A stretch of DNA of 64,000 nt from Candidatus Acidiferrales bacterium (GTDB lineage Bacteria > Acidobacteriota > Terriglobia > Terriglobales > Acidobacteriaceae): NCBI GenBank assembly GCA_035553195.1, contig DATNDP010000221.1:11379-75378 (forward strand), in the 5' to 3' direction. Shown in pieces: positions 29,396 through 39,805 of this stretch; the stretch's first letter is position 1; the number at the start of each line of letters is the position of its first letter. The notes under the pieces are model-generated. The model was given only the letters and a program-made list of their open reading frames with translations, did no database searches and had not been told where the DNA came from. Position numbers and translations under genes: made by a program.

Positions 29396-29986
29396 TTACT
29401 GAACCAATCTCACTGCATAAGGCGTGCCGTCGCGGTCTGTAATGAAATCTGCCGTTACCGGCTGGTCTGAGAGGTCTCCAAGCACAGGCGCTCCCAACAT
29501 GCGCAGCTCTGATCCCGGCAACTCCACGCGGACTACTTGCAGCTCTCCGCTCGCCGTTGCGGGATCATAACTGGGCAGAGCGATGAAGTTCTCTGATTCG
29601 CTGCTGGTCTGCTCATCAGTTGCTGGCCGAGGATGCTTCGTTATGGCACGTGCGGCCAGCTGAGTTGCGTCAGAATGTTTTGCCACCGGTTGGGTTGGCA
29701 CTTCTGCCACTTTTTGGAGTTTGGGCGGTGGTATCGTCGCGAGTTCATTTCCTGGAGCGGGTGCACGCAAGTTGAGCATTGCCGCGACCAGAAGCAATAA
29801 AACAGCAACAGAAGCCGCAGCCAGGAACCGCTTCTGCCGGCGGCGAAGATGGTGTCGGCGAAACTGGCCCAAAAGGCTGGCTTGCAGTGCCTCCGGCGCA
29901 TTGCGCTCGGTGCCTGAGGCCAGCCGGTGCAGTGCTGATGACAGCAGCGCCTCCGAGGGCGCACGAACTGGATCTATTTCACGCAT
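29396..29986 (-). CDS. probable membrane-spanning anti-sigma factor
   Basis: Overlaps the stop of the upstream ECF sigma gene by 13 nt. It has a single TM helix (FLAAASVAVLLLLVAAML) and an extracytoplasmic C-terminal domain. The call rests on position and topology only. Confidence 0.55.
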   Translation of the reverse strand: MREIDPVRAPSEALLSSALHRLASGTERNAPEALQASLLGQFRRHHLRRRQKRFLAAASVAVLLLLVAAMLNLRAPAPGNELATIPPPKLQKVAEVPTQPVAKHSDATQLAARAITKHPRPATDEQTSSESENFIALPSYDPATASGELQVVRVELPGSELRMLGAPVLGDLSDQPVTADFITDRDGTPYAVRLVQ

Positions 29987-30543
29987 GGTTGGCAGCTCAA
30001 TTTTTTCTTCAGCATCTTGCGCCCGCGGTGGACTCTTGAAGCCACAGTTCCGGGTGAACACTTGAGCAGTTCGGCGGCGTCCTGGTAACTGACATCTTCA
30101 AGGTCGCACAAGACGATTGCTTCCCGGTACTGCTGGGGCAAGGCCAGCACTGCGGCGCGAACCGCTGATACCAGTTCGCCGTTTGTAAGGTCCCGCAAAA
30201 CATCCATTTCCTCGGCGAGAGCGAAGTCATCGTCCTCAATATCTTTGTCCAGGGTCATCTCCCCGCTGACACTCTGAACGGCCCGGCGGGTGATGTTTCT
30301 TGCAATTCCGAAGAGGTATCCGCCTACGGAACCCTTGCCAGGGTCATAACCTTTCGAGTTTGTAATGAGTTGCGTAAACACTTCTTGTGTCGCCTCTTCC
30401 GCCGTTGCGCTATTACCGCTCATATGCAACGCGAACCGGTAAAGCGGGCCCTGATAGCGTTCGAACAGTGCTTTGAAAGCAGCCTCATTCCCTCTGGAGA
30501 GCTGCCGAAGCAACTCCTGGTCATCCTGCGCGAATTCCGCCAT
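29974..30543 (-). CDS. ECF-family RNA polymerase sigma factor
   Basis: Region 2 (FKALFERYQGPLYRFALHMSG...EEATQEVF) and region 4 (REAIVLCDLEDVSYQDAAELLKCSPGTVASRVHRGR) are present. The start is placed at MAEFAQDDQELL; upstream in-frame ATGs at 30612 and 30648 are possible. Confidence 0.85.
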   Translation of the reverse strand: MAEFAQDDQELLRQLSRGNEAAFKALFERYQGPLYRFALHMSGNSATAEEATQEVFTQLITNSKGYDPGKGSVGGYLFGIARNITRRAVQSVSGEMTLDKDIEDDDFALAEEMDVLRDLTNGELVSAVRAAVLALPQQYREAIVLCDLEDVSYQDAAELLKCSPGTVASRVHRGRKMLKKKLSCQPCVK

Positions 30544-30734
30544 GGTTCTGCCCGGTGCTTCGGCTTTTGCTCCTACTCTCCATTGCGCGAATTTGACGGT
30601 TTCTTCCACCATTTTTCTGGAATCTTCTTGGGGCCAGCCCGGGCCCACGACAACTCAGACGTTCCCATGGGCTCTGGGTAAGCCCGCAATTCCGGCAACA
30701 AGCCTGCTATTCTAATGTCCGATTTGGAGCATCT

Positions 30735-31178
30735 ATGGTGGAAGCCAAAGCAAACTGGATTGATGGTGAACGTTTCGCGGCGAGCGCCAGCAGCAGCCAC
30801 GCCGTCGTGATCGACTCAGATCGCCAGCGCAACACCGCGTCTGGGCCTATGGAGATGGTTTTGATGGGCCTGTGCGGCTGCACTGCTACCGACGTGGTGA
30901 GTATTCTGCGCAAGAAACGCGAGCCCTTCACGGGGGTCGAGGTACGTGCTGAAGCCGAACGAGCGCAGCAGCCGCCTACGGTCTATACGTCCATCCATCT
31001 CATCTACACGATTTCAGGGCCGGTCGCGCGCAAGTCGGTGGAAGATGCCGTCCGGCTCTCGGAAGAGAAGTATTGCAGCGTCGCCGCAATGCTGAGGAGT
31101 ACAGCCAAATTAACTTGGGAAATCCGGCTCCTGCCCGCTGTAAATGCGGTTGAAACGCATCTCGAGGCCGCAAAATAG
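30735..31178 (+). CDS. OsmC/Ohr-family peroxiredoxin-like protein
   Basis: 147 aa with the two family Cys contexts (LMGLCGCTATDV and EKYCSVAAML). GGAG Shine-Dalgarno upstream. Confidence 0.9.
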   Translation: MVEAKANWIDGERFAASASSSHAVVIDSDRQRNTASGPMEMVLMGLCGCTATDVVSILRKKREPFTGVEVRAEAERAQQPPTVYTSIHLIYTISGPVARKSVEDAVRLSEEKYCSVAAMLRSTAKLTWEIRLLPAVNAVETHLEAAK

Positions 31179-31228
31179 TGCAGCGGGAGGCCGTGCCGTG
31201 GAATCTTATCTTTCAACGGGAGGAAAGA

Positions 31229-31468
31229 ATGACAGCAAAGAAAGTGGTTGTGTACAGCTCACCCGGTTGACCGCCATGCTCCTGGGCCAAGGCCTACCTT
31301 TCGGAGAAAGGGATTCCATTCGAAATCAAGGACGTCAGCGTGGACCAGCAGGCCGTCTTCGAGCTGGTTCGAACCTACAAAAGCCGCTCCACACCTACGA
31401 TAGTCGTTGGAGACCAAGTCATGATCGGATTCGATCCTGACCGGCTGGACCAGATGCTTGCCGAGTAG
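31229..31468 (+). CDS. YruB/NrdH-type glutaredoxin-like protein with in-frame TGA at the first CxxC position (candidate selenoprotein, or a nonsense pseudogene)
   Basis: GGGAGGAAAGA-ATG, then MTAKKVVVYSSPG-TGA(31268-31270)-PPCSWAKAYLSEKGIPFEIKDVSVDQQAVFELVRTYKSRSTPTIVVGDQVMIGFDPDRLDQMLAE-TAG. The full glutaredoxin fold pattern continues in frame after the TGA. It is absent from the ORF track because of the TGA. Confidence 0.6.
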
Positions 31469-32432
31469 TCTTACCGCACCAGAAATCAGCCCCCGCAGCG
31501 GCCATCAGCAGTCGCACCCCTGGCGGGGGTACTTCTTTATAGCCGGAGCGACGTTTTGCTGGGGAGCCGCTGCAGCGGCCGGCAAGGCAATCTTCAACGG
31601 AAGCGTCTTTGCCGGACGCGCGGCCATCTCACCGCTGGTCTTGTCGCAGGCACGGACGACATTTGCCGTAATTGTTCTCGCGGGCTTTCTTCTGCTGCGC
31701 TTCGGACCGCGCTTTTTACGTATCCAAAGACGGGACCTGCTGCTTTGCGGACTTACCGGCATTCTCGGCTTGGCGGGATCGAATTATTTTTACTATCTCG
31801 CCATTGAGAAGTCTTCCGTGGCCATTGCGATCACGCTGCAATATACAGCTCCTGTCTGGGTTCTGATTACGATGGTGATGCGCGGCCGCGATCGGTTTTC
31901 GGCCACGCGCGTCTCTGCTGTGATCCTCGCCATGGCGGGAACTGCCCTGGCGATTGATGTTTTTCACTCGGGCCTGAGCTTCAAAGCCATGGGAGTGTTG
32001 GGCGGGATCATTGCATCGTTCTCCTATGCTTTTTACAACATCGTGGCGCAGGAACTGGTCAGCCGCCATCATCAGTTCAAGATCATGTTCTACGCGCTCC
32101 TGGCAGCGTCCGCTTTCTGGCTGCTGGTGAACCCTCCGCAGAGGCTGGTGGCTGAGCATTTCACCGGCGCGCAATGGAGTTTCCTGTTTCTTTTTGCCTG
32201 CCTCTCCACGCTCCTCCCGTATTTCTTTTACTTCACAGGACTGAAATATCTCGATCCAACACGGGCAGTTATCGCCAGCTCTCTGGAACCGGTCTTTGCC
32301 ATCCTTTTCGCCGTGAGTTTTGTAGGGGAGATCCTGCGCCCGGTTCAGGTGTTAGGAATTGCAGGAGTGCTCGTCGCAACCATTCTGGTGCAGCTACAGG
32401 GTCACCCGGCACCCTCGCCAGATCAGCCGTAA
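31458..32432 (+). CDS. EamA/DMT-family transporter
   Basis: About ten predicted TM helices in two EamA-like halves. TTG at 31458 is the only start found upstream of the first TM helix, and it overlaps the glutaredoxin-like frame by 11 nt. Confidence 0.8.
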   Translation: MPSSLTAPEISPRSGHQQSHPWRGYFFIAGATFCWGAAAAAGKAIFNGSVFAGRAAISPLVLSQARTTFAVIVLAGFLLLRFGPRFLRIQRRDLLLCGLTGILGLAGSNYFYYLAIEKSSVAIAITLQYTAPVWVLITMVMRGRDRFSATRVSAVILAMAGTALAIDVFHSGLSFKAMGVLGGIIASFSYAFYNIVAQELVSRHHQFKIMFYALLAASAFWLLVNPPQRLVAEHFTGAQWSFLFLFACLSTLLPYFFYFTGLKYLDPTRAVIASSLEPVFAILFAVSFVGEILRPVQVLGIAGVLVATILVQLQGHPAPSPDQP

Positions 32433-32488: not shown

Positions 32489-34420
32489 TCAGTAGTAGGA
32501 AGTCTGATTGACCCACTGCAGACGCTGCACTGTCGTTGTAGCTTTCGCCGACGCGACGCCGCCCAGGGTCAGGCTGGTGGAAGGGAACCACGGTGGAGCG
32601 AATCCACCCTGAGCATACCGCCGGTCAAAATACACGTTTCTAGTCTTCGCATTGATGTTCTTGATGTTGTTTTGAATGCGGCCGCCCACAATCGTCAACT
32701 GGTTGATTTGATTTCCAATATTCGTCAGGCCGCCCGTGCCATTTTGTGAAATGGTCGCCAGCGAGGCATCAATCTCCAGGTTGGCGTTTGCCTGCTGGTT
32801 GTTCAACTGGATGTCGCCGGTTGCGGTATAGATTCCCAATGCCTGACGGGTGTCATTGCCTGGAATCAGCGTATCTGCAGGTTGTCCTGTAATCGGGTTC
32901 GGGCTGGTAGTCACCGGCTCCGTAGTGTAAAGAATATCCCCGGTTACGGTAACGTTATTGGCGGCTGTGATTGTTACCTCACTCCCGTTCTGGATGGCGG
33001 GTACGCCCTGCCCAGGGCCTGAAAGGGAAGTAATGCTGCCATCCACATACAGCATGGTTGCCGGCGACGATGCGTGCGTGGCCGGATCGATCTGCTGTGG
33101 AACTCCCTGGAATACCACGGGAGCGGAGACAGGCAAACCTCCAACTTGCGTCGTCACGGTAGTTGTTCCATTACCGTTTTTTCCACCCGTGGGGTTGATT
33201 ACAACCGTTGTGGTGGTGGCGGGATTCCCTTGCTTTATCGTATACACCTGCTGTGAGGTGCCATTGGGAGCGGAGAGCGTTACTGAAGCACTGCCCTCCA
33301 CGTAGATTCCGCCACCATCGATCGTGTTATCGCCGTCCTTCTGTGTGTAAGGGAGAAAGACGCCCGAGTTTGTGCCGGAAGAAGGATACGGATTTCCGTT
33401 TACGTCTTTCAAGGCATTGTGAAGATCGCTCTTGCTTACCGGGCTTGTATCAGCGCCGATCCCATCCAGCACCGCCCTTTGCTGGTTGAAGTCATTGGAC
33501 GGAAGAGGCACTGCTGCTTGGCCTTGTTGGACTCCTGCCTGGAACTGGGGATCGATGGTGTTGTTGCCAGACTTCACGGGAACATCACCCGCCACTTCCT
33601 TGCAAGTGCCGCTGAACTGATATCCCGACGTGGATGCCACGCTGCCGACTGTATCGGTAAAAATATAGGAACCTGACGTGCCGAAATTCCAGGCACCATT
33701 GGTGAATACGGGACCGGAGATCGTGCCGGGCACCAGGGTCGTGCCATCGCATTCCGGAGAATGGTCAATAAACATTCCCCAGGCAGCAAAACTGATCTTG
33801 GAATTCGTGGGGACGAGAGTGGCCTTTACGATCACGCTGCCCCGGTCAGAGATGGTTGTCGCCTGAGTACCTTGTGCTTGTCCTTGCGCAGTCAGGGAAT
33901 AGTTGTAGAGATAGTCGTATTCGGTGACCGGGCCGCTGGGCGCAGCACAGGTTGCCGTCTTATCACCGCCCAGTACAGTACAACCATTCGGCGCAAGTGC
34001 AAACGAAACGTTTGTCAGCTTGAAGCTGCCCGGCCACGAAGAGCCGGCACTACCGTTTCCCGTGAGCTTCACAAAATTCTGGCCGTAGGTATTGACGAGA
34101 AAATTCTGCACGTTCGTGTCAGTACCGTTCGGGATCGGCTGCTGTGTAATGGTGAAGCTGGCCGGGATTGCAGCTACCACCTGGTCCAGCATGGCTTGGC
34201 GCGCCACGTTCAGGCCTGAGTCTGCCGCATAGAATGAGCCGCGGAAATTGCGGTAGTACCCGTTGATGAGCATGTCTGAACGGACCGAGAGGACCATGGC
34301 CAGGCTCAGCCCCGTCATCAACATCAGGAGCAGCAGGGTCGTGATCAGCGCGACGCCTTGCTGAGTCTTGCTTCGCTTCCTGTTGTGAGAGGTGGAAAAC
34401 CGAGGTGTGTTCCGTTGCAT
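32489..34420 (-). CDS. large PilX-N-domain-like pilus-associated protein
   Basis: The N-terminus QQGVALITTLLLLMLMTGLSLAMVL resembles the PilX N-terminal helix. The rest is a Thr/Gly/Asn-rich beta-type region. ATG 34420 is preceded by GAGGAGGGAGCA; the track start at 34438 is also possible. Confidence 0.7.
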   Translation of the reverse strand: MQRNTPRFSTSHNRKRSKTQQGVALITTLLLLMLMTGLSLAMVLSVRSDMLINGYYRNFRGSFYAADSGLNVARQAMLDQVVAAIPASFTITQQPIPNGTDTNVQNFLVNTYGQNFVKLTGNGSAGSSWPGSFKLTNVSFALAPNGCTVLGGDKTATCAAPSGPVTEYDYLYNYSLTAQGQAQGTQATTISDRGSVIVKATLVPTNSKISFAAWGMFIDHSPECDGTTLVPGTISGPVFTNGAWNFGTSGSYIFTDTVGSVASTSGYQFSGTCKEVAGDVPVKSGNNTIDPQFQAGVQQGQAAVPLPSNDFNQQRAVLDGIGADTSPVSKSDLHNALKDVNGNPYPSSGTNSGVFLPYTQKDGDNTIDGGGIYVEGSASVTLSAPNGTSQQVYTIKQGNPATTTTVVINPTGGKNGNGTTTVTTQVGGLPVSAPVVFQGVPQQIDPATHASSPATMLYVDGSITSLSGPGQGVPAIQNGSEVTITAANNVTVTGDILYTTEPVTTSPNPITGQPADTLIPGNDTRQALGIYTATGDIQLNNQQANANLEIDASLATISQNGTGGLTNIGNQINQLTIVGGRIQNNIKNINAKTRNVYFDRRYAQGGFAPPWFPSTSLTLGGVASAKATTTVQRLQWVNQTSYY

Positions 34421-34430
34421 TGCTCCCTCC

Positions 34431-35501
34431 TCATTCATTCATGCTCAGGTTCCGGGGATTGATTACTACCGAAACCGCCTGGATTTTGTATGGGCCCTGA
34501 TCAAACGTATTTTGAAATTTGTTATTTACGTCGCCTGACGGTGGTGTTCGTCCGATAAGAGAAATACGAACAGCGCGAATCAGACTCCAGTCATGTTTAT
34601 AAGTGCTCGCGTCAAAGCTGTAGGGATCAGCACTGGTACCATTCCAGATGGACGCGCCGACTTTGAACCCGATGATCTGTTCCGCAATAACATTCTGTTG
34701 GCCACTCTGCTCGCGTATCAGTTTGGGATCAGCGGGATCGGAAGCGTCCACCCAATATTTAATGGGAGCAAGCTTCAGGACCCAATCTGTGTTGCAAAAC
34801 TGATCACCCAACTTGTTGTTGTCGCTGTTGCTGGCAATTCCCAGGGGATCAGTATCGTTTACCCCTCCTGCCCCAGTGGGATTGTGCGCCAGTTTTACCT
34901 TTCCGCCTGACACCTCGCCATCGCTGGTGAGAACCGTCGTGGTCATCTGCGAACCGTCACTCTTCACCAGGAGAACCTCGTCTCCACTGTGAAAGTCCGC
35001 CGCAAGTTGAGCCAGAGTCGTAGCGCCAAGCGGGGTGATGAACAGGCTGGATGACGTGCTGCTTACACAATTTGCGCCGATATCCTGAGGATTGGCTGGA
35101 GGAGTGTTCGGGTCGATCGCGATCACGTTCATCGCGTCAAAACAAGTCTGGCCGTAGGTATGGGTCGTGGCATCGTAACAGTTCGTGGCCGGCGGATTAT
35201 TGACGATGGTCACGCCGATGGGCCATGAAGGAATATTCACGCCCTGGTAGTACCCGGTTCCTGCATTCACCACGTCAATCTGCATCTGCGCCGCAGCATT
35301 TCGCATGGCAATATTGAGCCCGGTCTGTTGTTCTTCGGTCGTGAACAGAGGCGCGTGTTTCCTCACCAGCCCAATCGCGGCACCGCCAACGATCATGAAG
35401 ATCGCCATAGCCACCAGAAGTTCGACAAGCGAGAAACCTGCTGTTCCTGCGGCAGCATTCGACCTGGTTTTGCGAATCAGTTGTGCATTGGCTTTGCGCA
35501 T
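34431..35501 (-). CDS. prepilin-type N-terminal cleavage/methylation domain protein (PilW-like minor pilin)
   Basis: Class III signal TAG|FSLVELLVAMAIFMIV. At 356 aa its size and operon position fit PilW. Confidence 0.75.
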   Translation of the reverse strand: MRKANAQLIRKTRSNAAAGTAGFSLVELLVAMAIFMIVGGAAIGLVRKHAPLFTTEEQQTGLNIAMRNAAAQMQIDVVNAGTGYYQGVNIPSWPIGVTIVNNPPATNCYDATTHTYGQTCFDAMNVIAIDPNTPPANPQDIGANCVSSTSSSLFITPLGATTLAQLAADFHSGDEVLLVKSDGSQMTTTVLTSDGEVSGGKVKLAHNPTGAGGVNDTDPLGIASNSDNNKLGDQFCNTDWVLKLAPIKYWVDASDPADPKLIREQSGQQNVIAEQIIGFKVGASIWNGTSADPYSFDASTYKHDWSLIRAVRISLIGRTPPSGDVNNKFQNTFDQGPYKIQAVSVVINPRNLSMNE

Positions 35502-35505
35502 GTGC

Positions 35506-36123
35506 TCACCTCACCATGCTGGTTTGGAAGTTTACTGCCCCTGTTACGGCGGGCAATTGCACCACGACCGTGATCCTGCGCGATTCCGGCGGCAATCCAG
35601 GGACGTTCGTTTCAATGATCCAGCGGCGTCTAAATAACAGGGTGTCTCCGTTGCCGGCAGGGGGTGCATTCCCTTGCGTAGAGATTACGGTTCCATCCGG
35701 GGCATGAGTTGTCGTCGTGAAGACATTCTTGCCGCCCGCGTCTTTTCCGCTCACCGTCTCAACAATGGATCCGTTGCCGGACGAAATGGCAACCGTATCA
35801 AAATAGTCGATGGTTTGAAGGCTTCCATCCGGAGCAGTAACGCTCGCGGTGGTGTCGGCTGTCAGGCTACCCACGGAGTTCCCCGCGGAAACAGAAATGG
35901 CGGGATCAGAGTCGGGCAGCCGATTGAGATCGTCGAGCTTTTCAGAGGCAAGCAGCGCCTCCGTGCTCATGTAGCGTGACGTGCTTGAATTTCCGGTAAG
36001 CTGCGCCAGCAGAGCGGCTGCACCAAGCAACCCGACCGCCAGGATTACGATGGCAATCATGGTCTCTATCAAGGCAAAACCTGTCTGCCGGCCCGTTTTA
36101 CGGCGTGACTTTGATATTTCCAT
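35506..36123 (-). CDS. prepilin-type minor pilin (PilV-like)
   Basis: Class III signal QTG|FALIETMIAIVILAVG. ATG 36123 or TTG 36138 could be the start; both overlap the end of the upstream gene. Confidence 0.75.
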   Translation of the reverse strand: MEISKSRRKTGRQTGFALIETMIAIVILAVGLLGAAALLAQLTGNSSTSRYMSTEALLASEKLDDLNRLPDSDPAISVSAGNSVGSLTADTTASVTAPDGSLQTIDYFDTVAISSGNGSIVETVSGKDAGGKNVFTTTTHAPDGTVISTQGNAPPAGNGDTLLFRRRWIIETNVPGLPPESRRITVVVQLPAVTGAVNFQTSMVR

Positions 36124-36595
36124 AGCTAGATACCGCAATCGACTCAGTCTTTCCGTGGGACGTCAGCGTGAGTGTAGTAGAGCCCACTGAGGCGGTAACC
36201 AGACCGCCAGGATGGAACTGGAGAGTTGTGTCCTGACCCAGCACAAATGCATTTCCGAGAGGCACCGGATTCGCCGTTACGTTTGTGAAGACTCCGGTGC
36301 GGTTCGGGTCGCTCTGCACCTGATAATTCGAATTGGCCTTGCTGAATACGACTTGAAACGGGTACCCCCCGGAGATCGCCTGATACCGGGTGCCTTGAAT
36401 CGCTCCTGTAACCGCTGAGACCGCCGCATTGAGTTGAAACGACCGGTAAATATTAGTGATCAGCGGAAGGGCTACCAGCGACAGGAGCAGAGCTATGACG
36501 AGTGTGATGATGAGCTCGATCAGCGTAAAGCCTGATCTCCCGGACTGGGACCGGCGTGCCGATCCTATTCTCGATGCCAACCTGCCACCGCTCAT
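36098..36595 (-). CDS. prepilin-type minor pilin (GspH/FimT-like)
   Basis: Class III signal RSG|FTLIELIITLVIALLL. ATG 36595 is preceded by AAGGAGGAGCAG. It is the first gene of the operon. Confidence 0.75.
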   Translation of the reverse strand: MSGGRLASRIGSARRSQSGRSGFTLIELIITLVIALLLSLVALPLITNIYRSFQLNAAVSAVTGAIQGTRYQAISGGYPFQVVFSKANSNYQVQSDPNRTGVFTNVTANPVPLGNAFVLGQDTTLQFHPGGLVTASVGSTTLTLTSHGKTESIAVSSYGNIKVTP

Positions 36596-36925
36596 CTGCT
36601 CCTCCTTGCCGAAAATTGCGGCCGAAACCCAGCCTTTGAAACCGTTCGGAGCCCAAGAGAAGAACACTTCCGGAAAAAGTACTGTCGGTCGGAAAAGTTA
36701 CTTCGGTTATGCAGACTCGATTGTCTGGCCCCCCGGCGGGAGCGACAAGTTACCAAAGTGTTTTTGAGAGGAGCCGCAGTGGTTACTAAAGTTGTCGCGG
36801 CAAAGGCTGTGAGTCCTTGTCTATATTGGAGCTTTCTAATCGGTTCAGCAGAGATTGCAAATCTGGGTTGCCCGAGATTCGTTTCTTAAAACGTTCGGCA
36901 TCCAGCAGCTTGCTACAATACGGGT

Positions 36926-38485: not shown

Positions 38486-39805
38486 ATGTCCCCACGGGAG
38501 TGGGGTTCCCTGTCAAAAAACAAGGTTGGAGTAGATCACGTGTACCGCATCTCTAAGCTGGTTGCGGGCGCCGCAGTGGCGGCCCTGTCTTTATGCGCGG
38601 CAGCGCAGGAACAGCCGCCCAAGCTGAGAGGACAACACCCTCAGCAGCAACAGCATTCCACCGCGGCGAAGCTCACGCCCGAGCAGAAGTTCGTTTTTGA
38701 TACCGTCAATATGGCGGTGTCGCTGCCCGAGTCTGACCCGCAGGATCGCCTCCGTGTATTGGCCAGCGCGGCTGATGTGATCGCCCCTATCGACCGCACC
38801 ATGGCCCGGAAGCTCTGGCACGAGGGCGTGCGCATAGAATCGGAGTTGATTCGCGTGGGGCAAAAGCCATCTGTGTCTTTAATGGCCAGCGGTCAGGCTG
38901 ATTGCCAGGCTGCTCTGAACTTCGTTGAAAACCTGCCCGTAAACGCCGCCTTCCAGGCCGAGCAATCTCTCATTGGCGCTGTAACTTCCTGCCCCAAGCA
39001 GACTCTGGATACAATTTCGCGGAAGCTGGATGCGGCCATGGACAAAGGCATTGTGCCCTCGCGAGCTCTGATGGCTGCGATTCAAGCTCAGGGAGCGAGC
39101 TCTCAGTGGTCGCAGCAGCACTTTGAGAAGATGTTCGATTCGCTGCCTGACAGCCACGAGTACGCCGGCGAAGCAGAGAACTTTGCCGCAATGTACGCGC
39201 AGATGGCCCCGGACGTAAACAAGGACCTGGCCAGCCGCACGGGACTCAAACTGCTCGACTGGCTGGCCAAGATGGACGACAGTCCTGTCCGTACGATGGG
39301 CATCAACATCACTGCCGGTGCAATGCAGGAAGCGCTCGGTGCGACGGACTACGCGGCAGCACTGCAGAAGGATCTGGTGGCGAATTCTGCTGTCCAGAAT
39401 CCCGGCCAAACAAGGGAAATCGAGCGCCCTCCCGAGGACACGGTTTCCGTGCTCGAAGCCATGGACAAGGCCGGAACCGATCAAACCGAAGCTCTGCGAG
39501 GCCTTCCGCCGGTTCAGCGGGCACGCCAGGCCGCAGCCAGCGGTTTCGCTGCTGGAACCTCCGGACATAAGGCCCAGGCTGCAAAGTACTTTGATATGGC
39601 GTTCGACGCCGTAAATGAAGCCTGGGACGCTCGTACTCCGGAGACGGACACCGCTGCAGTAGTTCAAGAGGTTGGCGAGGCCGCCGCTCAGGTGAACTCT
39701 TTAAATGCACTCGTCAGAGCCCAGGCTCTCCGCGACTCTTCAGCCCAAGCGATTGCCATGCTCGCTGTTGCGCGCGTTGTGTCCAGCAACGGCATAGCTC
39801 GTTAA
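38486..39805 (+). CDS. hypothetical secreted Ala/Gln-rich helical protein
   Basis: Signal-like AGAAVAALSLCAAAQ. GTG 38540 is an alternative start. No family recognised. Confidence 0.55.
   Translation: MSPREWGSLSKNKVGVDHVYRISKLVAGAAVAALSLCAAAQEQPPKLRGQHPQQQQHSTAAKLTPEQKFVFDTVNMAVSLPESDPQDRLRVLASAADVIAPIDRTMARKLWHEGVRIESELIRVGQKPSVSLMASGQADCQAALNFVENLPVNAAFQAEQSLIGAVTSCPKQTLDTISRKLDAAMDKGIVPSRALMAAIQAQGASSQWSQQHFEKMFDSLPDSHEYAGEAENFAAMYAQMAPDVNKDLASRTGLKLLDWLAKMDDSPVRTMGINITAGAMQEALGATDYAAALQKDLVANSAVQNPGQTREIERPPEDTVSVLEAMDKAGTDQTEALRGLPPVQRARQAAASGFAAGTSGHKAQAAKYFDMAFDAVNEAWDARTPETDTAAVVQEVGEAAAQVNSLNALVRAQALRDSSAQAIAMLAVARVVSSNGIAR

Follow-up and report, generated by a model that had tools for sequence, protein, structure and literature searches.

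Glutaredoxins (PF00462) that carry selenocysteine (Sec) at the first position of a UxxC motif have been described for Moorella thermoacetica, Alkaliphilus metalliredigenes/Clostridium sp. OhILAs and Geobacter sulfurreducens (Zhang et al. 2006, PMC1794560). The family ranks among the experimentally verified selenoprotein families (PMC13188914), and a selenoprotein glutaredoxin is credited to Kim et al. (2011, Mol Microbiol 79:1194) in a passage of the same review. The gene analyzed here has in common with these systems a product of 75–79 amino acids with thioredoxin fold, Sec as the first residue of UxxC after strand β1, the TP and VGFD motifs, and a Sec insertion sequence (SECIS) located within the coding region just 3' of UGA. 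Amino acid identity to the published Sec-glutaredoxins amounts to 44 % (Moorella) and 43 % (Alkaliphilus), both gapless and with U14 opposite U, and to 32 % (Geobacter). The hosts differ, being anaerobic Clostridia and Deltaproteobacteria in the published cases versus soil-dwelling Terriglobia/Ca. Angelobacter-type Acidobacteria here, as do the motifs (UPSC, UPHC and UPYC versus UPPC). Moreover, unlike the published Sec-glutaredoxins, the present branch displays a fixed OsmC-glutaredoxin-EamA operon context and escapes current annotation, which retains only fragments (NCBI, JGI). Based on the Sec-aligned homology, the gene therefore belongs to an already known selenoprotein family, the soil-acidobacterial branch of which is routinely cut short in annotation.

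Two further groups of redox proteins are related more loosely. Redoxins of the YruB (TIGR02196), BC3987 (3ZIT/3ZIJ) and NrdH types carry Cys where this gene has the TGA codon, 3ZIT/3ZIJ being of the same length with CPPC aligning to UPPC; a link between YruB and Sec was not found in the literature searched. The UXX-star selenoproteins possess a glutaredoxin-like fold, are represented by selenoprotein-aware NCBIfam models and are weakly similar to the product, but have, going by the NCBIfam names, a C-terminal U-X-X-stop instead of an N-terminal UxxC. All scores were below the respective cut-offs (NF041212, 55.6 bits; NF041114, 34.2 bits; NF041211, 42.0 bits; NF047338, 34.2 bits), and membership was ruled out on the basis of the NF041212 score (cut-off 66), the location of Sec at residue 14 and the C-terminus MLAE-stop.

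The gene resides in a 64-kb stretch of DNA analyzed as a whole (referred to as the window), in which the following features were delineated:
31218–31224, forward strand: Shine-Dalgarno sequence GGGAGGA, 4 nt 5' of ATG, read directly
31229–31468, forward strand: predicted Sec-glutaredoxin gene, 79 codons including UGA14, followed by a TAG stop
31268–31270, forward strand: UGA codon 14, inferred Sec codon, where CPPC has its nucleophilic first Cys
31340–31468, forward strand: 42-amino-acid GTG-started fragment, annotated by public gene callers instead of the full gene

Direct reading bore out the ribosome-binding site, start codon and interrupted frame of the original prediction: from ATG at 31229 the frame encodes MTAKKVVVYSSPG, then reaches TGA, continues for 65 sense codons and ends with TAG at 31466–31468. 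GGAGG-like motifs precede the start codon in many orthologues. The conceptual product of 79 amino acids reads MTAKKVVVYSSPGUPPCSWAKAYLSEKGIPFEIKDVSVDQQAVFELVRTYKSRSTPTIVVGDQVMIGFDPDRLDQMLAE. With U read as C, the Pfam glutaredoxin model PF00462 matches residues 6–64 and thus spans the TGA (E=7.5e-15; 55.3 bits versus a cut-off of 22.9), in agreement with the proposed glutaredoxin pattern in which TGA occupies the position of the nucleophilic Cys, to which the Cys of homologues also aligns. The best NCBIfam match is the YruB family TIGR02196 (87.7 bits versus a curated cut-off of 88.55), the score of which remains 0.85 bits below the cut-off despite full-length coverage (model positions 1–73 of 74). 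In the best PDB match, 3ZIT/3ZIJ (E=8.7e-14), the leading Cys of CPPC lies opposite UGA14. Judged from sequence comparison, the product is a small redox protein similar to glutaredoxins, in which Sec is almost certainly encoded by the TGA at 31268. Those checks suggested in the original prediction that were carried out all favoured a selenoprotein. With high confidence, 31229–31468 can be assigned to a thioredoxin-fold, YruB/NrdH-like glutaredoxin with the active site U14-P-P-C17, the Sec of which would be inserted at UGA by means of a downstream hairpin.

Contrary to the earlier statement that no in-frame start follows the TGA, an in-frame GTG at 31340 (codon 38) opens a 42-amino-acid ORF. 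This fragment is an annotation artefact; codon 38 is not conserved as a start, its amino acid entropy being 2.43 bits. Fragments nevertheless prevail in databases, accounting for 95 of the best 120 homologues versus 22 full-length CxxC forms among the same 120. The NCBI and JGI entries comprise 42–63 amino acids, with one JGI entry reading TGA as Trp, and no selenoprotein-aware NCBIfam model covers the soil-acidobacterial Sec-glutaredoxin branch. This branch is widespread among soil Terriglobia/Ca. Angelobacter-type Acidobacteria, themselves recurrent in the collections of soil MAGs and metagenomes searched, and is systematically mis-annotated by current pipelines; the extent to which soil communities use selenium is thus underestimated. 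Several Acidobacteriaceae were reported to possess SelA, SelB and SelD but "0 known selenoproteins" (Peng et al. 2016), a gap which small unannotated selenoproteins of this sort could fill.

Two adjacent hairpins are located downstream of the UGA:
31283–31296, forward strand: 5' hairpin UGGGC-CAAG-GCCUA, partly conserved
31297–31311, forward strand: SECIS-type hairpin CCUUUC-GGA-GAAAGG, 15 nt, 6-bp stem, GGA loop closed by C-G

Both had been predicted and are present; strict conservation, however, applies only to 31297–31311. Its stem starts 26 nt and its loop 32 nt after the UGA, free of indels in 66 sequences, and all 372 alignment cells are paired (none broken), compared to 43–69 % of cells at slid control positions. 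The stem covaries (UA>CG in 18 sequences, UA>GC in 6, UA>UG in 6), two pairs display compensatory double changes (24 cells), and the covariation score was reached by none of 500 shuffles. The apical loop reads GGA in 63, GGC in 2 and GGG in 1 of the sequences, and the stem, 6 bp in the window copy, reaches 8 bp in a large number of relatives. At codons 23, 25 and 26 the third base does not vary in any of the 66 sequences (0 bits), as opposed to 1.4–1.95 bits at four-fold sites of other codons. TGA forms possess the hairpin in 66/66 cases and Cys forms, positional orthologues included, in 0/8 (Fisher p=6.6e-11), so that the expected coupling between TGA and a conserved, covarying hairpin was indeed observed. 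The 31283–31296 hairpin is paired in 83.5 % of cells, with the loop-closing pair broken in 22 of 62 sequences; many family members form it when folded to minimum energy, and it may belong to the SECIS element as an accessory or a lower section.

Published rules for bacterial SECIS elements (PMC13188914, Fig. 2) specify a loop of 3–9 nt, an upper stem of 4–16 bp, a UGA-to-loop distance of 16–37 nt and G within the first two loop positions, with N1-G-G-N-N2 as favoured pattern. The window hairpin agrees with these values (loop 3 nt beginning with GG, stem 6–8 bp, spacing 32 nt). Like the E. coli fdhF-type SECIS and the bSECISearch consensus, it is an intragenic stem-loop 3' of UGA with GG opening a small closed loop; it differs by its very short core (6–8 bp plus triloop) and, with respect to the bSECISearch consensus, by its folding energy. 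The window hairpin alone yields −4.2 (15 nt) to −5.8 kcal/mol (21 nt), weaker than the minimum free energy cut-off of −7.5 kcal/mol, whereas across the family the 21-nt segment has a median of −8.0 kcal/mol (range, −10.6 to −5.8). In the near-identical relatives L001 and L002 both adjacent hairpins fold (−12.5); a 53-nt segment of the window folds at −13, but its minimum-energy structure is a competing one. Single-sequence folding of the window segment is unremarkable, being no more stable than shuffled sequence (z=0.57); support for the hairpin is comparative. Likewise unspecific was a bSECISearch-like scan of the window, which returned 82 candidates and ranked the genuine hairpin last by energy among those bearing the motif; a second gene convincingly encoding a selenoprotein did not emerge from the window. 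No Rfam family matched the element when the window, the 60 loci and the local region were scanned. The compact core (C-GGA-G, fixed 26-nt spacing) together with the fixed operon provides a clean system for studying the specificity of acidobacterial SelB.

TGA is one base away from TGC/TGT and gene callers handle the gene as broken, which would fit a nonsense mutation that inactivated a Cys-glutaredoxin, the alternative named in the original prediction. Whether relatives carry TGA or TGC/TGT at codon 14 is answered by 65 out of 65 Terriglobia/Ca. Angelobacter-type orthologues, all of which have TGA at 66–92 % amino acid identity and a pS of ~0.6. The ratio pN/pS is 0.205 before and 0.198 after the TGA; at ~0.2 upstream and downstream, purifying selection acts equally on both sides. 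Frameshifts or additional stops are absent, and four metagenome assemblies, independent of one another, contain the gene with its TGA without a single base difference. The invariable TGA and the selection on either side thus leave a pseudogene with a probability close to nil. Alternatively, translation could terminate at UGA and resume at GTG 31340 to form a separate 42-amino-acid product, with the hairpin as a regulatory or pausing structure. The corresponding ORF exists and is annotated by pipelines; it is extremely unlikely to be a genuine product, since codon 38 is among the most variable positions and no start in the majority of orthologues, codons 2–13 and 15–37 are under purifying selection in the glutaredoxin frame, and the fragment is devoid of β1, redox motif and α1.

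A reading of UGA as Cys or Ser rather than Sec would involve an opal-suppressor tRNA, either a tRNA(Sec)-like tRNA(Cys)-UCA with a SelB paralogue, as in Deltaproteobacteria, or an acidobacterial allo-tRNA, with the hairpin serving that system. Such selC* tRNA(Cys)-UCA species with selB* copies have been described (Mukai et al., PMC5389517), and for tRNA(Sec)-like allo-tRNAs of Acidobacteria a role in nonsense or missense suppression is considered possible (PMC5389517). The selC*/selB* pairs, however, were reported for anaerobic Firmicutes, Thermodesulfobacteria, Nitrospirae and Proteobacteria, not for Acidobacteria (PMC5389517), the hairpin matches the canonical loop rule of bacterial SECIS elements, and the published glutaredoxins, an experimentally verified selenoprotein family (PMC13188914), carry Sec at the homologous position. 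For insertion of Cys, furthermore, a TGC codon would suffice, as exemplified by the Cys orthologues. Suppression by Cys or Ser is, hence, considered unlikely, and Sec is retained as the preferred reading. Cys-form homologues align Cys to the TGA, four distant ones by means of TGT, and some occupy the same syntenic slot, with P0020, P0011, P0007 and P0005 residing in CDF-OsmC-glutaredoxin-EamA synteny. MAGs with the TGA form include DASTAS01, CAVROV01, CAVYOH01, JAIQGL01 and QHVI01, and the Cys form is carried by GCA_035295685.1 and GCA_025927695.1. A composite signature, defined as TGA followed after 20–32 nt by a 6-bp stem with C-GGN-G loop and an open frame on both sides, occurred 56 times in the Sec-glutaredoxin gene, compared to just 3 occurrences outside it in the 753 kb searched (both strands).

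Global reassignment of TGA was ruled out, as TGA terminates flanking orthologous genes at which others have TAA/TAG. At the same loci and end positions, TGA alternates with TAA/TAG as terminator in 6/31 CDF, 17/54 OsmC and 23/56 EamA orthologues, and it ends 4 of the 21 genes of the window. UGA recoding is therefore local, TGA being a normal stop for neighbouring genes in the same genomes.

Genes for selA, selB, selD and tRNA-Sec were not found in the 64-kb window or the 60 flanking loci. Among 20 large ORFs of the window, Pfam scans identified ordinary housekeeping genes and no SelA, SelB or SelD, and tRNA scans of the window and the 60 loci no tRNA-Sec. Several Acidobacteria are known to possess SelD, SelA and SelB (Peng 2016, Table S1). 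With Solibacter SelA from a paper supplement as query, acidobacterial SelA proved abundant in soil data, the best 120 matches all being Solibacter/Bryobacteraceae-like; three SelA contigs and a cluster look-up provided no match to any MAG with the TGA form. ARAGORN detected only an antisense tRNA-Pro on two selA loci, so that these could not serve as positive control for the detection of tRNA-Sec. This genome presumably encodes SelB and tRNA(Sec), and selenium would then be incorporated at U14.

The Sec-glutaredoxin gene is flanked by:
30735–31178, forward strand: gene for OsmC-family peroxidase (PF02566, 64.9 bits)
31458–32432, forward strand: gene for EamA-family transporter (PF00892, 122.5 bits), overlapping the 3' end of the glutaredoxin gene

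As predicted, the OsmC-type peroxidase gene ends 50 nt upstream of the glutaredoxin gene, an arrangement with osmC directly upstream in 52 of 60 loci, and eamA follows directly downstream in 57 of 57. No terminator-like site was observed in the osmC-glutaredoxin gap, the promoter/terminator scan being otherwise at background. The glutaredoxin gene and eamA are assigned to one operon, to which osmC probably belongs as well. OsmC represents a candidate redox partner and may be a client of the Sec-redoxin. According to the proposed mechanism, the glutaredoxin gene would be co-transcribed with osmC upstream and eamA downstream. With the ribosome at UGA14, the hairpin at 31297–31311 (C-GGA-G loop, 26 nt downstream) would serve as bacterial SECIS element and tether SelB-GTP-Sec-tRNA(Sec), such that Sec would be inserted in place of termination and translation would proceed to TAG at 31466. 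In the mature protein, the U14 selenolate would be the attacking nucleophile and C17 would resolve the intermediate as selenenylsulfide; in analogy to redoxins of the NrdH/YruB type, thioredoxin reductase probably serves as reductant. Selenoproteins are rare in aerobic bacteria according to a 2026 review (PMC13188914), and the OsmC-glutaredoxin-EamA operon allows recycling of an OsmC peroxidase by a Sec-redoxin to be probed in presumably aerobic soil bacteria.

In two independent relatives, P0001 (L078:2253–2492) and P0016 (L083:474–716), the Sec position is occupied by TTA, a rare codon for Leu, and the perfect hairpin is retained. By eye they share only ~60 % of residues, and the nearest relatives of P0001 are apparently TGA forms. 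A search for TTA, TCA or TAA forms with hairpin in 241 million JGI metagenome records detected none, apart from one chance match in a non-glutaredoxin. The TTA variants more likely reflect two recent inactivating mutations or assembly errors. From Acidobacteria, (9/3) allo-tRNAs are known that resemble tRNA(Sec), bear UAA anticodons and decode UUA in E. coli (PMC5389517). It is conceivable, albeit very unlikely, that the TTA site in some Terriglobia undergoes SECIS-guided recoding of the sense codon UUA by such an allo-tRNA; if so, the UUA-recoded glutaredoxin gene would be a natural client that could reveal the role of the allo-tRNA. The covarying hairpin is limited to the TGA and TTA forms.

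The gene at 31229-31468 represents a new, unannotated and lineage-wide member of the known selenocysteine-containing glutaredoxin (Sec-Grx) family. Reading of the sequence and its open reading frames revealed the following elements:

31218-31224, + strand: Shine-Dalgarno sequence GGGAGGA
31229, + strand: ATG start codon of the Grx gene
31268-31270, + strand: in-frame TGA, preceded by 13 sense codons (MTAKKVVVYSSPG)
31466-31468, + strand: stop codon TAG, after 65 further sense codons in the same frame
31340-31468, + strand: 42-aa ORF opened by an in-frame GTG after the TGA
31144-31440, + strand: off-frame 98-aa ORF with ATG start

Shine-Dalgarno sequence, ATG, TGA and 65-codon continuation are all present as originally described, and the selenoprotein interpretation built on them is supported with high confidence; the claim that no in-frame start follows the TGA fails on the GTG at 31340. 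With TGA translated as Cys, the 79-residue product matches PF00462 (Glutaredoxin) across the TGA (55.3 bits, cut-off 22.9) and covers the full NCBIfam model TIGR02196, "glutaredoxin-like protein, YruB-family" (87.7 bits, cut-off 88.55). The nearest solved structures, 3ZIT and 3ZIJ, are 78-residue CPPC redoxins with their first Cys opposite the TGA. The bacterial selenoprotein families already established include Grx (PF00462, UxxC; Zhang et al. 2006, PMC1794560), which a 2026 review (PMC13188914, citing Kim et al. 2011) lists among the experimentally verified ones. Among the Sec-Grx sequences in the supplement of Zhang et al. 2006, those of Moorella thermoacetica (44 % identity over 77 residues, gapless), Alkaliphilus metalliredigenes (43 %) and Geobacter sulfurreducens (32 %) all place U opposite U14; on account of these identities, the protein is assigned to the Sec-Grx family, with which it shares the YruB-type fold. 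No connection between YruB and selenocysteine was found in the literature searched. Assignment to the NCBIfam "UXX-star" glutaredoxin-like selenoproteins was rejected because scores fell below the cut-offs and their Sec is placed elsewhere.

Four independent public metagenome assemblies (L074-L077) contain the gene, TGA included, without a single base difference, so the TGA is no sequencing error. With one genome searched per GTDB species, 69 related loci emerged: TGA stands at this codon in all 65 Terriglobia or Candidatus Angelobacter-type orthologues (66-92 % protein identity), and TGT in the four distant homologues (Desulfobacterota, Marinilactibacillus; 42-44 % identity). In a set of 66 distinct coding sequences, codons 2-13 show a pN/pS of 0.205 and codons 15-77 one of 0.198 (pS about 0.6), indicating a single coding frame maintained over long divergence; a nonsense pseudogene is excluded by this maintenance on both sides of the TGA. 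Codon 15 (31271-31273), directly after the UGA, is CCG in 61 of 66 sequences, its four-fold site showing 0.44 bits, and the near-fixed UGA-C-C-G context suggests an added constraint beside the recoded codon.

Two hairpins downstream of the TGA had been proposed:

31283-31296, + strand: hairpin 1
31297-31311, + strand: hairpin 2, CCUUUC-GGA-GAAAGG, SECIS-type element, helix predicted by RNAalifold

In a gapless alignment of 62 distinct sequences (72 nt from the TGA onward; columns 30-44 correspond to 31297-31311), hairpin 2 is strictly conserved, with standard pairs in 372/372 cells and not one broken pair, whereas hairpin 1 is not (83.5 % of cells paired, closing pair broken in 22/62). Pair exchanges within hairpin 2 comprise U-A to C-G at 33-41 (18 sequences), U-A to G-C at 34-40 (6) and U-A to U-G at 32-42 (6); none of 500 shuffles matched its covariation score or double-change count, and pairing fell to 43-69 % when the 3' partner was shifted 1-3 columns along. 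The loop reads GGA (n = 63), GGC (n = 2) or GGG (n = 1). As judged from the aligned sequences, the constraint acts on the RNA and not on the protein alone, because the third positions of codons 23 (TAC/CAC/TTC), 25 (TCG/GCG) and 26 (GAG) are invariant in 66/66; that of codon 25 is four-fold degenerate yet always G, the other four-fold sites of the gene showing 1.4-1.95 bits.

Bacterial SECIS elements, as modelled in PMC13188914 (Fig. 2), have a loop of 3-9 nt, a stem of 4-16 bp, a UGA-loop spacing of 16-37 nt, the favoured loop pattern N1-G-G-N-N2 and an energy of -7.5 kcal/mol or lower. Hairpin 2 conforms to its geometric rules (loop 3 nt; stem 6 bp, 8 bp in many relatives; UGA-to-loop spacing 32 nt; loop opened by G-G, with N1:N2 = C:G). 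The window copy of hairpin 2 alone reaches -4.2 to -5.8 kcal/mol, the family median being -8.0; in near-identical relatives, both adjacent hairpins fold at -12.5. Single-sequence support is weak: the 53-nt fold of the window copy (z = 0.57) prefers a competing helix, and scanning the entire window in the manner of bSECISearch yielded 82 candidates without singling out hairpin 2, which ranked last by hairpin energy among the motif-bearing matches. The exact family geometry of TGA plus hairpin 2 is specific to the Grx gene, with 56 matches inside it versus 3 junk matches in 753 kb (both strands).

Comparison with Cys forms, i.e. homologues with a Cys codon at the site, ties hairpin 2 to the TGA. 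Full-length CxxC homologues make up 22 of the best 120 database matches, and some occupy the genomic slot of the TGA form: P0020 (Candidatus Angelobacter MAG) in CDF-OsmC-Grx-EamA, P0007 in OsmC-Grx-EamA, and P0011 and P0005 in CDF-Grx-EamA. All six pairs are present in 66/66 TGA forms versus 0/8 distinct Cys forms (Fisher's exact test, p = 6.6e-11), which retain 2-5 of 6 pairs and have local folds of 0 to -3.4 kcal/mol; the Cys form at locus L080 lacks the hairpin despite similar amino acids (YLAEKG). Hairpin 2 is regarded as a compact, well-supported SECIS.

TGA also serves as an ordinary stop, terminating 4 of 21 Pfam-supported window genes. In the loci harbouring TGA-Grx, it ends flanking orthologues of CDF (6/31), OsmC (17/54) and EamA (23/56), where it swaps with TAA or TAG at the same end position; this requires read-through in Grx to be local and to depend on context.

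The surroundings of the Grx gene comprise:

29396-30061, - strand: probable anti-sigma ORF, divergent from osmC, relatives in 26 related loci
29974-30648, - strand: ECF sigma factor, divergent from osmC, relatives in 31 related loci
30735-31178, + strand: OsmC gene, ending 50 nt upstream of Grx as originally described
31458-32432, + strand: EamA transporter gene, overlapping the Grx 3' end
32489-36667, - strand: run of same-strand ORFs
32489-34438, - strand: 649-aa protein without Pfam match, recurring downstream of eamA in 23 loci
34431-35501, - strand: 356-aa protein with N-terminal prepilin-type methylation motif
38486-39805, + strand: 439-aa ORF, no Pfam family at E<=1e-5

In 57/57 loci EamA directly follows Grx, and in 52/60 OsmC directly precedes it; no terminator-like site was found between osmC and the Grx gene. 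Most simply, osmC-Grx-eamA form one operon, and recycling of the OsmC peroxidase by the Sec-redoxin may reasonably be inferred. The ECF sigma/anti-sigma pair is placed divergently upstream in many loci and, given this recurrence, may regulate the unit. The ORF run at 32489-36667 looks like a pseudopilin or type IV pilus-like cluster.

Public annotation misses the gene. The off-frame ORF at 31144-31440, an expected miscall, does exist, but where public contigs have the same sequence as the window, gene callers chose just the 42-aa GTG fragment. Fragments of <=65 aa without redox motif account for 95 of the best 120 database homologues, one being named [quoted passage not shown] by NCBI. In a second type of mis-annotation, the JGI protein P0002 (L079:650-889) has W at the Sec site (GWPPC) despite TGA in the DNA, evidently the outcome of a translation table with TGA=Trp. 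The finding bears chiefly on annotation and on estimates of how much selenium soil Acidobacteria use.

Leu occupies the Sec position in two full-length database proteins, the DNA of which reads TTA:

L078:2253-2492: P0001, from an NCBI MAG, TTA at 2292-2294
L083:474-716: P0016, from a Logan assembly

Unlike the Cys forms, both retain a perfect hairpin 2 with GGA loop (-9.3 and -8.0 kcal/mol, respectively); they have about 60 % of residues in common, by eye, and P0001 seems to have TGA forms as its nearest relatives. In these genomes TTA is rare, making up about 3 % of Leu codons. Acidobacteria possess tRNA(Sec)-like (9/3) allo-tRNAs with anticodons for UUA/UUG, and that of Silvibacterium (allo-tRNA-UAA) decodes UUA in Escherichia coli (Mukai et al., PMC5389517). 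Neither of the short contigs carries a tRNA gene. In the JGI metagenome collection, no additional hairpin-bearing form with TTA, TCA or TAA at the site turned up, so such forms are rare; they more likely reflect recent loss or an assembly error.

Sec decoding is documented for Acidobacteria at the phylum level. SelD, SelA and SelB are reported for Candidatus Koribacter versatilis (11 selenoproteins), Candidatus Solibacter usitatus (8), Terriglobus saanensis and Acidobacteriaceae KBS 83/89/96 and TAA166, some bearers of these proteins being given "0 known selenoproteins" (Peng et al. 2016, Table S1); four selenoproteins were counted in Acidobacteria by Zhang et al. 2006 (PMC1794560), and Acidobacteriota have Sec-hydrogenases according to a 2026 study. 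The 64-kb window and 60 flanking loci contain no tRNA genes, and the window no Rfam family at gathering scores. SelA, SelB and SelD are absent among the 20 large window ORFs scanned, which encode ordinary housekeeping functions (among them multicopper oxidase, peptidases, succinate dehydrogenase/fumarate reductase flavoprotein, CDF transporter, sigma-54 system, RecJ, DnaX and LptD-like proteins). Acidobacterial SelA is abundant in soil data (query: Solibacter SelA); matches, SelA contigs and cluster look-up did not place it in the same MAG as a TGA-Grx. Solibacter-like contigs carry a tRNA-Pro(CGG) gene in antisense orientation immediately upstream of selA (L085:5868-5945 and L086:5868-5944, - strand). 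The Solibacter SelA of the 2006 supplement carries an odd N-terminal extension (…GEWIRTTGLLVPNQALYQ…) resembling a translated tRNA gene, which the antisense tRNA-Pro gene probably explains.
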